A stretch of DNA of 64,000 nt from Escherichia coli (GTDB lineage Bacteria > Pseudomonadota > Gammaproteobacteria > Enterobacterales > Enterobacteriaceae), in NCBI RefSeq assembly GCF_045037415.1, contig NZ_CP173438.1; one strand, written 5' to 3'. The notes under the pieces were generated by a model. That model saw nothing but the letters and a program-made list of their open reading frames with translations, searched no databases and was not told where the DNA came from. Positions 4,316-55,039 of the stretch are shown one piece after another; the first letter of the stretch is position 1, and every line of letters begins with the position of its first letter. The translations under genes and the position numbers were made by a program.

Positions 4316-7300
4316 GTGAGGCGATTGCCGGGGATTTTACTGCTTACTGGAGCCGCGCTCGTTGTGATCGCTGCCCTGCTGGTTAGCGGCCTGCGTATTG
4401 CTTTACCGCATCTTGACGCCTGGCGTCCGGAAATCCTCAACAAAATAGAATCCGCGACTGGCATGCCGGTAGAAGCCAGTCAGCTCTCAGCCAGCTGGCA
4501 GAATTTTGGTCCGACGCTTGAAGCGCACGACATCCGTGCAGAACTAAAAGATGGCGGCGAATTTTCGGTTAAACGCGTTACCCTGGCGCTGGATGTCTGG
4601 CAGAGCCTGTTACATATGCGCTGGCAGTTTCGCGACCTCACTTTCTGGCAGCTGCGCTTTCGCACCAACACTTCTATCACCAGCGGCGGTGGTAATGATA
4701 GCCTGGAAGCCAGTCACATCAGCGATCTGTTTCTTCGTCAATTTGACCATTTCGATCTCCGCGACAGTGAAGTCAGTTTCCTGACGCCATCCGGTCAGCG
4801 CGCCGAGCTGGCGATCCCACAGCTCACCTGGCTGAACGATCCACGTCGACACCGTGCGGAAGGCCTGGTAAGCCTCTCCAGCCTTACCGGACAGCACGGC
4901 GTGATGCAGGTGCGTATGGATTTGCGCGATGATGAGGGGTTGTTAAGCAATGGTCGCGTCTGGCTCCAGGCGGATGACATCGACCTGAAGCCGTGGCTCG
5001 GTAAATGGATGCAGGACAATATTGCGCTGGAAACGGCACAGTTCTCCCTTGAAGGCTGGATGACGATCGACAAAGGCGATGTAACCGGCGGTGACGTCTG
5101 GCTGAAACAGGGCGGTGCCAGCTGGTTGGGCGAGAAGGAAACGCATACGCTGTCGGTGGATAATCTGACTGCGCATATTACGCGTGAAAATCCGGGATGG
5201 CAGTTCTCTATTCCCGATACACGGATCACGATGGACGGCAAACCCTGGCCGAGCGGAGCATTGACGCTGGCCTGGATACCGGAACAGGACGTTGGCGGCA
5301 AAGACAATAAACGCAGTGACGAACTCCGGATTCGTGCCAGTAATCTGGAGCTGGCAGGGCTGGAGGGCGTACGCCCGCTGGTCGCGAAACTTTCACCTGC
5401 ACTGGGTGATGTTTGGCGCTCCACACAACCGAGCGGCAAGATTAACACTCTGGCGCTGGATATCCCGCTTCAGGCGGCAGACAAGACCCGTTTTCAGGCA
5501 TCGTGGAGCGATCTGGCCTGGAAGCAATGGAAATTATTACCGGGTGCGGAACACTTCTCCGGGACGCTTTCCGGCAGCGTAGAAAATGGTTTGCTTACTG
5601 CGTCGATGAAGCAGGCAAAGATGCCTTACGAAACGGTATTCCGTGCGCCACTGGAAATCGCCGACGGCCAGGCAACGATAAGCTGGCTGAACAATGACAA
5701 AGGTTTCCAGCTGGATGGGCGTAATATTGACGTTAAAGCCAAAGCCGTCCATGCGCGCGGCGGTTTTCGTTACCTGCAACCTGCTAACGATGAACCCTGG
5801 CTGGGTATTCTGGCTGGCATCAGTACCGATGATGGTTCACAAGCCTGGCGCTATTTCCCGGAAAACTTGATGGGTAAAGACCTGGTTGATTACTTAAGTG
5901 GCGCGATTCAGGGCGGTGAAGCGGATAACGCGACGCTGGTTTATGGTGGCAATCCGCAACTCTTCCCCTATAAACACAACGAAGGTCAGTTTGAAGTGCT
6001 GGTGCCGCTGCGCAACGCGAAGTTTGCCTTCCAGCCGGACTGGCCTGCATTAACTAACCTTGATATTGAACTGGACTTTATTAACGACGGTTTATGGATG
6101 AAAACCGATGGCGTTAATCTGGGCGGCGTGCGCGCGAGTAATCTCACCGCAGTGATCCCTGACTACTCAAAAGAAAAACTGCTGATTGACGCTGACATTA
6201 AAGGTCCGGGTAAAGCCGTTGGCCCTTACTTTGATGAGACACCGCTGAAAGATTCCCTGGGTGCGACCCTGCAAGAACTCCAGCTCGACGGCGATGTGAA
6301 TGCTCGCTTACATCTTGATATCCCGCTGAACGGCGAGTTGGTAACCGCGAAAGGTGAAGTGACGCTGCGTAATAACAGTCTGTTTATCAAACCACTCGAC
6401 AGCACCCTGAAAAATTTGAGCGGTAAATTCAGCTTTATCAATGGCGATCTGCAAAGTGAACCACTGACAGCAAGCTGGTTTAATCAGCCGTTGAACGTGG
6501 ATTTTTCCACCAAAGAAGGGGCAAAAGCCTACCAGGTCGCGGTGAATCTCAACGGTAACTGGCAACCAGCGAAAACCGGCGTTCTGCCTGCAGCGGTGAA
6601 CGAAGCATTAAGTGGCAGCGTGGCGTGGGATGGTAAAGTGGGCATTGAGCTGCCTTATCATGCTGGCGCGACGTATAACGTAGAGCTGAACGGCGATTTG
6701 AAGAATGTGAGCAGTCACTTACCTTCACCGTTAGCCAAACCTGCGGGTGAACCACTATCGGTAAACGTTAAGGTTGATGGCAATCTCAACAGCTTTGAAT
6801 TAACCGGACAGGCTGGTGCGGATAACTATTTCAATAGCCGCTGGTTGCTCGGTCAAAAGCTGACGCTCGATCGTGCTATTTGGGCGGCAGACAGTAAAAC
6901 GCTCCCGCCGTTGCCGGAACAAAGTGGCGTTGAACTCAATATGCCGCCGATGAATGGTGCCGAGTGGCTGGCCCTGTTCCAGAAAGGCGCGGCGGAGAGT
7001 GTCGGTGGTGCAGCGAGTTTCCCACAACACATAACGTTACGTACGCCTATGTTGTCGCTGGGAAATCAGCAATGGAATAACCTGAGTATTGTTTCGCAAC
7101 CGACGGCAAATGGCACCCTGGTTGAGGCGCAAGGGCGTGAAATCAACGCCACGCTGGCGATGCGTAATAACGCGCCGTGGCTGGCGAATATCAAATATCT
7201 TTATTACAACCCAAGCGTGGCGAAAACTCGTGGTGATTCAACACAGTCATCACCTTTCCCGACAACGGAACGCATTAGCTTCCGTGGCTGGCCAGACGCA

Positions 7301-8190: not shown

Positions 8191-8226
8191 GTAGGCCGGA
8201 CAGGGCGTTCACGCCGCATCCGGCAG
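8191..8226. repeat. REP (repetitive extragenic palindrome) element
   Basis: gtaggccggacagggcgttcacgccgcatccggcag matches REP consensus (GCCGGATGCGGCG...CGCC.TATCCGGCCTAC in reverse complement); lies in the yhdP-tldD spacer. Confidence 0.75.
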
Positions 8227-53311: not shown

Positions 53312-53320
53312 ATTTTTTCA

Positions 53321-53351
53321 GGCCGGATATGGCGTTAACCGCCTGTCCGGC
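53321..53351. repeat. REP-like imperfect palindrome
   Basis: ggccggatatggcgttaaccgcctgtccggc resembles the REP consensus GCCGGATG.GGCG...CGCC.TATCCGGC but is degenerate. Confidence 0.35.
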
Positions 53352-53370
53352 AAACCTGCCTGCAAGTCGA

Positions 53371-53400
53371 GCCTTGTCTGATTTATCAGCGAGGCTTTTT
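53371..53400 (+). terminator. Probable rho-independent terminator after mlaB
   Basis: Imperfect hairpin gccttgtctgat..atcagcgaggc followed by ttttt. Confidence 0.45.
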
Positions 53401-53470
53401 GCTTATTTATGCCAGCGCAACTTTGCTCTAAGATGTTTCGCTGATTTATTAACTGATGATTGAAGATCCC

Positions 53471-53725
53471 ATGGAAAATAATGAAATTCAGAGCGTGTTG
53501 ATGAACGCTCTCTCCCTCCAGGAAGTCCACGTTTCCGGCGATGGCAGCCACTTTCAGGTTATTGCCGTGGGTGAGTTGTTTGACGGCATGAGTCGGGTTA
53601 AAAAACAGCAGACGGTCTATGGCCCGCTGATGGAATATATTGCGGATAACCGCATTCATGCTGTGTCGATCAAAGCGTATACCCCTGCGGAGTGGGCGCG
53701 CGATCGCAAACTGAACGGCTTTTGA
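53471..53725 (+). CDS. ibaG: BolA-family protein IbaG
   Basis: ORF-track frame 53456..53725; start chosen at [33 protein letters not shown], 84 aa. Confidence 0.88.

Positions 53726-53779: not shown

Positions 53780-55039
<1,260 letters not shown>

Follow-up and report, generated by a model that had tools for sequence, protein, structure and literature searches.

The mlaE-mlaD-mlaC-mlaB-ibaG-murA genes lie on the + strand of a 64,000-nucleotide stretch of the E. coli chromosome (the window). The annotated start of ibaG is at position 53471, and the 159-nt spacer that separates it from mlaB contains two hairpins (Table 1). The hairpin nearer to mlaB is formed by an imperfect palindrome, GCCGGATATGGCGTTAACCGCCTGTCCGGC, which starts 10 nt 3' of the mlaB stop codon and whose arms, 15 nt each, are 73% complementary. 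A previous sequence-only reading of the window had described REP-like ends at 53321-53351, and the letters found there, GGCCGGATATGGCGTTAACCGCCTGTCCGGC, agree with that description. A short open reading frame in the spacer (53329-53463, 44 amino acids) was dismissed, since it spans both the palindrome and the second hairpin and is impossible in species that lack the palindrome.

Table 1. Features of the mlaB-ibaG spacer, in window coordinates.
Feature	Position	Strand	Basis
mlaB stop codon TAA	53309-53311	+	Open reading frame 52922/53018-53311 translates to MlaB; K-12 annotation maps there
TCAG tetranucleotide in place of the conserved REP GTAG	53318-53321	+	Covariance-model positions 1-4 (GUAG) align here; GTAG in Citrobacter orthologues
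Degenerate Y-class REP palindrome; outer stem GCCGGA/TCCGGC, inner stem GGCG/CGCC, loop TTAAC	53322-53351	+	Sequence, fold, motif count, models, orthologues
REP-to-terminator linker AACCTGCCTGCAAGTCG	53353-53369	+	Aligns with the linker of Citrobacter (CTGCC..CAA)
Intrinsic terminator of the mla operon; hairpin 53370-53395, U-tract 53396-53400, RNA 3' end 53400	53370-53400	+	Fold, covariation, Term-seq
Strongly conserved block 5' of ibaG; -10-like TAAGAT at 53429-53434	53401-53470	+	Near-invariant across 80 species loci

The palindrome and the E. coli REP classes

Folded as + strand RNA, the palindrome forms a 12-bp stem with a single bulged U (-21.3 kcal/mol, z = -4.37), a stability that none of 200 shuffled sequences attained. 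Two copies of the motif GCCGGAT-N10-22-TCCGGC are present in the window where 0.03 would be expected, and the other copy is a canonical Y-class REP in the degQ-degS spacer (8191-8225, GTAG strand +). Like the E. coli Y-class REPs, the mlaB-ibaG element is an extragenic unit of 35 nt (53318-53352; REPs are imperfect palindromes of 30-40 nt) that lies directly 3' of a stop codon, with GCCGGAT...TCCGGC arms, GGCG/CGCC and a stem interrupted by non-complementary bases. The interruption places TAT across from TG where the outer stem gives way to the inner one, and in the RNA form it is reduced to one bulged U by an A-U and a U.G pair, whereas the canonical Y REP carries a 2x2 mismatch, AA/GC. The element also departs from the Y consensus in an apical loop longer by one base, in one A deleted from the 3' arm, and in TCAG at the place 5' of the stem foot where REPs have the conserved GTAG. 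The centre of the palindrome had been described as divergent; this is correct for the internal and apical loops, but the inner stem, GGCG/CGCC, is that of a canonical Y REP.

We compiled a reference set of 50 REPs with a GTAG, drawn from the window and from 250 kb of K-12 sequence, comprising length classes of 30 nt (Z1), 35 nt (Y) and 37-38 nt (Z2). Class Y on the + strand gave the best alignment (28/35 identical, versus 25/38 for Z2 and 23/30 for Z1; consensus GTAGGCCGGATAAGGCGTTCACGCCGCATCCGGCA, element TCAGGCCGGATATGGCGTTAACCGCCTGTCCGGCA), with a score that was reached by 0 of 5000 shuffles. A covariance model built from 13 distinct, independent E. coli Y REPs matched the element over its full length on the + strand with 13.8 bits (E = 0.12), the second-best full-length match in 64 kb, compared with 58.6 bits for the canonical degQ-degS copy. 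The - strand reading was rejected, as it scored 10.5 bits and the Citrobacter orthologues have their GTAG on the + strand. In an nhmmer profile search over 314 kb, the element scored 10.9 bits (E = 0.12); all matches above it were genuine REPs, and the first false positives came just below. The comparison with REP and BIME classes proposed along with the sequence-only reading thus returned an alignment, to class Y, even though the REP-likeness that can be read from the E. coli sequence itself is real but borderline.

Rfam contained no family that matched the element at threshold. The naRNA4 family (RF02564; REP325-derived) gave a weak match of 20.6 bits, below its gathering score of 59.5, and the element is not a member; the similarity arises because the family was built from REP units. 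A match to a eukaryotic lncRNA was spurious. The K-12 RefSeq feature table lists no REP in the mlaB-ibaG spacer, nor does it list the canonical REPs of degQ-degS, glnA-glnL and malE-malF; since the table omits even these, its silence at mlaB-ibaG is uninformative. The supplements of the RepRanger paper come without a gene-level list. Elsewhere in the window, a perfect 13-nt REP half-site, GCCGGATGCGGCG, lies at 54668-54682 within the murA coding sequence (9.6 bits, nhmmer); it is a chance match that lacks a palindromic partner.

Within E. coli, the element is present in 5423-5425 of 5426 complete genomes, with one copy in each. A 61-nt segment around it is single-copy in 5423 of these genomes and identical in 5204, and a 301-nt search disclosed no E. 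coli allele with the drop in identity expected of a REP deletion. The exact variant is found at a median of one place per genome and is not repeated elsewhere, so that the many copies typical of REPs are missing, and the element belongs to the REP family only as a diverged copy. The E. coli spacer is also no BIME, as it holds one REP-like match with no inverted partner.

These data bear on the simplest alternative, namely that the palindrome is a chance look-alike, a locus-specific RNA or DNA hairpin with G+C-rich arms and no REP ancestry. The borderline E-values against the E. coli REP models, the missing GTAG and the single copy could all be read in its favor, but the low count of the motif expected in the window and the failure of every shuffle to reach the Y-consensus score are not what such an origin predicts. 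It is largely refuted by orthology, as described below, and we consider it scarcely credible.

Orthologous spacers and the origin of the element

We collected 80 species-level loci via IbaG (numbered with an L where individual loci are cited). The REP is absent from 57 of them, among which are all genera other than Escherichia, Citrobacter and Salmonella; in these REP-less loci the spacer measures 114-139 nt (mostly 125-127) and runs from the stop codon through TTTTTTCAGTACGTTACT.. to the terminator. Spacers are 158-159 nt in Escherichia, 169-171 nt in most Citrobacter and 199 nt in alleles with a BIME. Most Citrobacter carry a 35-nt element at the identical position and on the identical strand, which in several species is a canonical GTAG REP, GTAGGCCGGATAAGGCCTTGTGCCGCCATCCGGCA. 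The E. coli-derived model assigns this canonical copy 41.2 bits (E = 4.5e-9, in four Citrobacter species), and the scores of the orthologues form a graded series from there through 36, 30, 21 and 17.4 bits to the Escherichia copies at ~14 (13.8) to 7.6. The presence of canonical REPs at the orthologous Citrobacter site, with the same strand and length and on a shared spacer haplotype, indicates homology by descent and settles the identity of the mlaB-ibaG element as a REP. The comparison of orthologous spacers that had been suggested as a check, extended here to other species, therefore places a canonical GTAG REP exactly where the E. coli palindrome lies.

The REP-bearing alleles of Escherichia and Citrobacter have the terminator variant AGCCTTGTCTGATTTATCAGCGAGGC in common, while REP-less alleles, including those of Citrobacter, have another; the linker between REP and terminator is partly alignable between the two genera. 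The shared terminator variant and linker argue for one ancestral insertion with later decay. The Escherichia/Citrobacter lineage would have gained the REP at a point flanked on one side by the T-run behind the mlaB stop codon and on the other by the mlaFEDCB terminator, which was already in place.

Alternatively, the Escherichia and Citrobacter elements could be independent insertions at a REP hot spot, in which case the E. coli copy would have been without a GTAG from the start and is a REP body beside a resident TTTTTTCAG. The site has indeed been struck more than once, since the BIME alleles (a Y iREP with a 38-nt Z2-like REP) are a different insertion, and the junction in REP-less taxa, TTTTTTCAG followed by TAC, contains the same TCAG as Escherichia. 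Nevertheless, element length, junction position, terminator variant and the partly alignable linker are all held in common, and in the C. freundii complex GTAG and T/CCAG alleles are both present on otherwise near-identical spacers, which argues that the tetranucleotide changes in situ. Independent insertion is in our view unlikely, and we favor a single ancestral insertion.

The 199-nt spacers, which combine an iREP with a 38-nt REP, were found in Salmonella arizonae, C. amalonaticus ku-bf3 and Citrobacter MGH106 (L009, L018, L019). At the site orthologous to the single E. coli REP, Salmonella arizonae and some Citrobacter thus have an iREP + REP pair, which is a separate insertion event.

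Several further features of these spacers were noted. REP-less genera (L022, L036, L080 and others; ~1380-1400) conserve the motif TTTTTCAGTACGTTACT in the stretch that leads from the mlaB stop codon to the terminator; in Escherichia and Citrobacter, REP and linker have taken its place. The Citrobacter single-REP alleles (L011 1372-1398, and others) have an additional mini-hairpin, CCCCTGAAGGGG, with compensatory variants, between REP and terminator; Escherichia has none. All 35 nt of the GTAG REP are the same in four Citrobacter species that are distant from one another, C. koseri among them (L011, L029, L032, L033; 1336-1371), with linkers that differ, while alleles that have lost GTAG have accumulated several substitutions. 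This pattern fits a picture in which intact REPs would be homogenised or maintained and disabled ones drift.

The mla operon terminator and the ibaG upstream block

The downstream hairpin and the T5 run behind it have a folding energy of -18.8 kcal/mol (z = -3.7), far more stable than shuffled sequences. When 55 distinct orthologous sequences were compared, pairing held for 96.4% of cells and compensatory changes were seen at 7 of the 9 pairs, a level of covariation found in 0 of 500 shuffles. In the Term-seq data for MG1655 (Adams et al. 2021; PMC7815308, supplementary files 1 and 3), each of the three growth conditions has an abundant 3' end at 3336874(-), which lies outside Rho-dependent regions and 71 nt before ibaG. 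After a check of the coordinate mapping, this K-12 position corresponds to window position 53400, the last U of GGCUUUUU. A G+C-rich hairpin, a U-tract, covariation and an RNA 3' end within the U-tract thus coincide at 53370-53400, as expected of an intrinsic terminator.

The "imperfect terminator hairpin" that had been noticed behind the palindrome is therefore real. A simple consensus scan for terminators overlooked it because of its bulge and the stem rules of the scan, in keeping with the word imperfect, and the intrinsic-terminator score at the Term-seq 3' end, 2.63 against a cut-off of 3.0 (PMC7815308), fits the same description. The proposal that the REP marks the boundary between the mla operon and ibaG-murA did not survive: the boundary is the downstream terminator, which is conserved in REP-less genera and has the Term-seq 3' end. 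The terminator evidently predates the REP, and the latter is best seen as an accessory insertion upstream of it. Among the reported Term-seq 3' ends (PMC7815308) there is none at the foot of the REP, and hence nothing to suggest that the REP is a major barrier to exonucleases in the growth conditions of that study.

RNA-seq coverage across the 3' end is 169 upstream versus 126 downstream (PMC7815308), and transposon insertions with outward promoters throughout mlaFEDCB raise murA expression (PMC7735965; PMC7566553). The modest fall in coverage and the transposon effects on murA indicate that the terminator is leaky. Termination itself is the work of the downstream hairpin, and some of the transcripts read through it into ibaG-murA.

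From the T-run to the ibaG start codon, the spacer is nearly invariant across the 80 Enterobacteriaceae species, most strongly so at ACTTTGCTCTAAGATG (~53420-53435). This block is presumed to hold the promoter and 5' UTR of ibaG-murA. A consensus scan of 53401-53470 gave no match to a sigma-70 promoter, and the putative promoter/leader perhaps acts via a non-standard sigma factor or an activator. Promoter coverage in Shimada 2014 is limited to mlaF.

Fate and possible role of the REP hairpin

In the Escherichia copy, TCAG has replaced the lost GTAG; the stem mismatch of the E. coli element has shrunk to one bulged base, and the element is single-copy and essentially fixed. The REP transposase TnpA-REP requires both GTAG and the stem mismatch (PMC3333891), so the E. 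coli copy should be an immobile relic, and binding or cleavage of the element by TnpA-REP as single-stranded DNA is predicted to be negative. The earlier suggestion of a decayed REP holds insofar as the element is REP-derived and degenerate, as evidenced by the Y alignment, the covariance model and the Citrobacter orthologues; the decay is confined to the determinants of mobility (GTAG), and the hairpin is intact. We conclude, with a probability of about 85%, that the palindrome is a single Y-class REP whose GTAG strand is the mla sense strand and which persists as a decayed, immobile 3'-UTR relic in front of the true terminator. Such a degenerate, orphan copy of a Y-class REP is nothing unusual and belongs to a well-known kind of element.

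Among 15 distinct alleles from Escherichia and Citrobacter, 99% of the outer-stem cells pair as sense-strand (+) RNA, and nearly all changes among these alleles lead to G.U pairs or are compensatory. E. albertii, for example, has GGTG/CACC where E. coli has GGCG/CGCC, and all five of the differences between these two species preserve the structure (5/5; p ~0.05 by our own estimate). The substitution density between E. coli and E. albertii within the REP (5/35) is no lower than in the adjoining linker, and any constraint would hence be on pairing, not on sequence. In strain GN25, a one-base deletion falls in the loop. Small as these numbers are, they suggest that pairing in the mRNA is under constraint; the excess of changes that form G.U pairs on the sense strand could instead stem from a transcription-associated C-to-T bias.

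The 12-bp hairpin lies in a 3' UTR whose end is the terminator U-tract, 49 nt beyond the hairpin. REP hairpins can slow 3'-to-5' exonucleolytic mRNA decay, and the mlaB-ibaG hairpin may slow the decay of mla mRNA likewise. According to the statement in PMC12306157 that cites Liang et al. 2015, REPs less than 16 nt from a stop codon can reduce translation of the upstream gene; at less than 15 nt from the mlaB stop codon, the hairpin may hinder the terminating ribosome and thereby lower MlaB output. The element resembles known stop-proximal 3'-UTR REP hairpins in its stability and its 10-nt distance from the stop codon of the upstream gene, and differs from them in that a separate intrinsic terminator downstream carries the mapped 3' end. 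Its likely role is that of an immobile relic lasting as a hairpin in the mRNA 3' UTR.

A more elaborate role would make the hairpin part of a regulatory RNA device, either as an sRNA derived from the 3' UTR or as the terminator's antiterminator partner. The segment from REP to terminator would give a two-hairpin RNA of ~90 nt with a U-tract end at an abundant Term-seq 3' end, and its hairpin is kept across Escherichia species. Yet no Rfam family matches at threshold, the K-12 annotation has no sRNA at this place, the two hairpins fold each on its own and no alternative pairing is predicted, and the segment is missing from most Enterobacteriaceae that have the same operon and terminator. We regard a regulatory device as very improbable.

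Returning to the REP relic, a bolder extension is that it was domesticated in Escherichia after the loss of GTAG, as an RNA hairpin that adjusts how much MlaB is made and/or how fast mla mRNA decays. The series of alleles found there (no REP, TCAG-REP, GTAG-REP, BIME) would then record the entry of REPs into the gap between stop codon and terminator, with conversion of the tetranucleotide in situ, possibly from TCAG to GTAG as templated by other REPs. We offer this as speculation and consider it unlikely.

The practical value of these results is small and lies in a corrected annotation of the mlaB-ibaG spacer, with a degenerate REP, a real terminator (3' end at 53400) and a conserved block upstream of ibaG-murA. 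The locus also provides a natural allele series for the gain and decay of a REP at one site. The leakiness of the terminator bears on murA expression, and hence on fosfomycin susceptibility; we know of no effect of the REP itself on either.

One natural insertion was seen in the same spacer. In the urine isolate E. coli EC2 (NZ_CP041955.1; L088 2733-4431), an ISEcp1 element (IS1380-like, with a frameshifted transposase) lies between the mlaB terminator and ibaG, at the site corresponding to window position ~53431/53432 and reading in the same direction as ibaG-murA. The outward promoter of the element could increase expression of murA, the fosfomycin target, in this strain.
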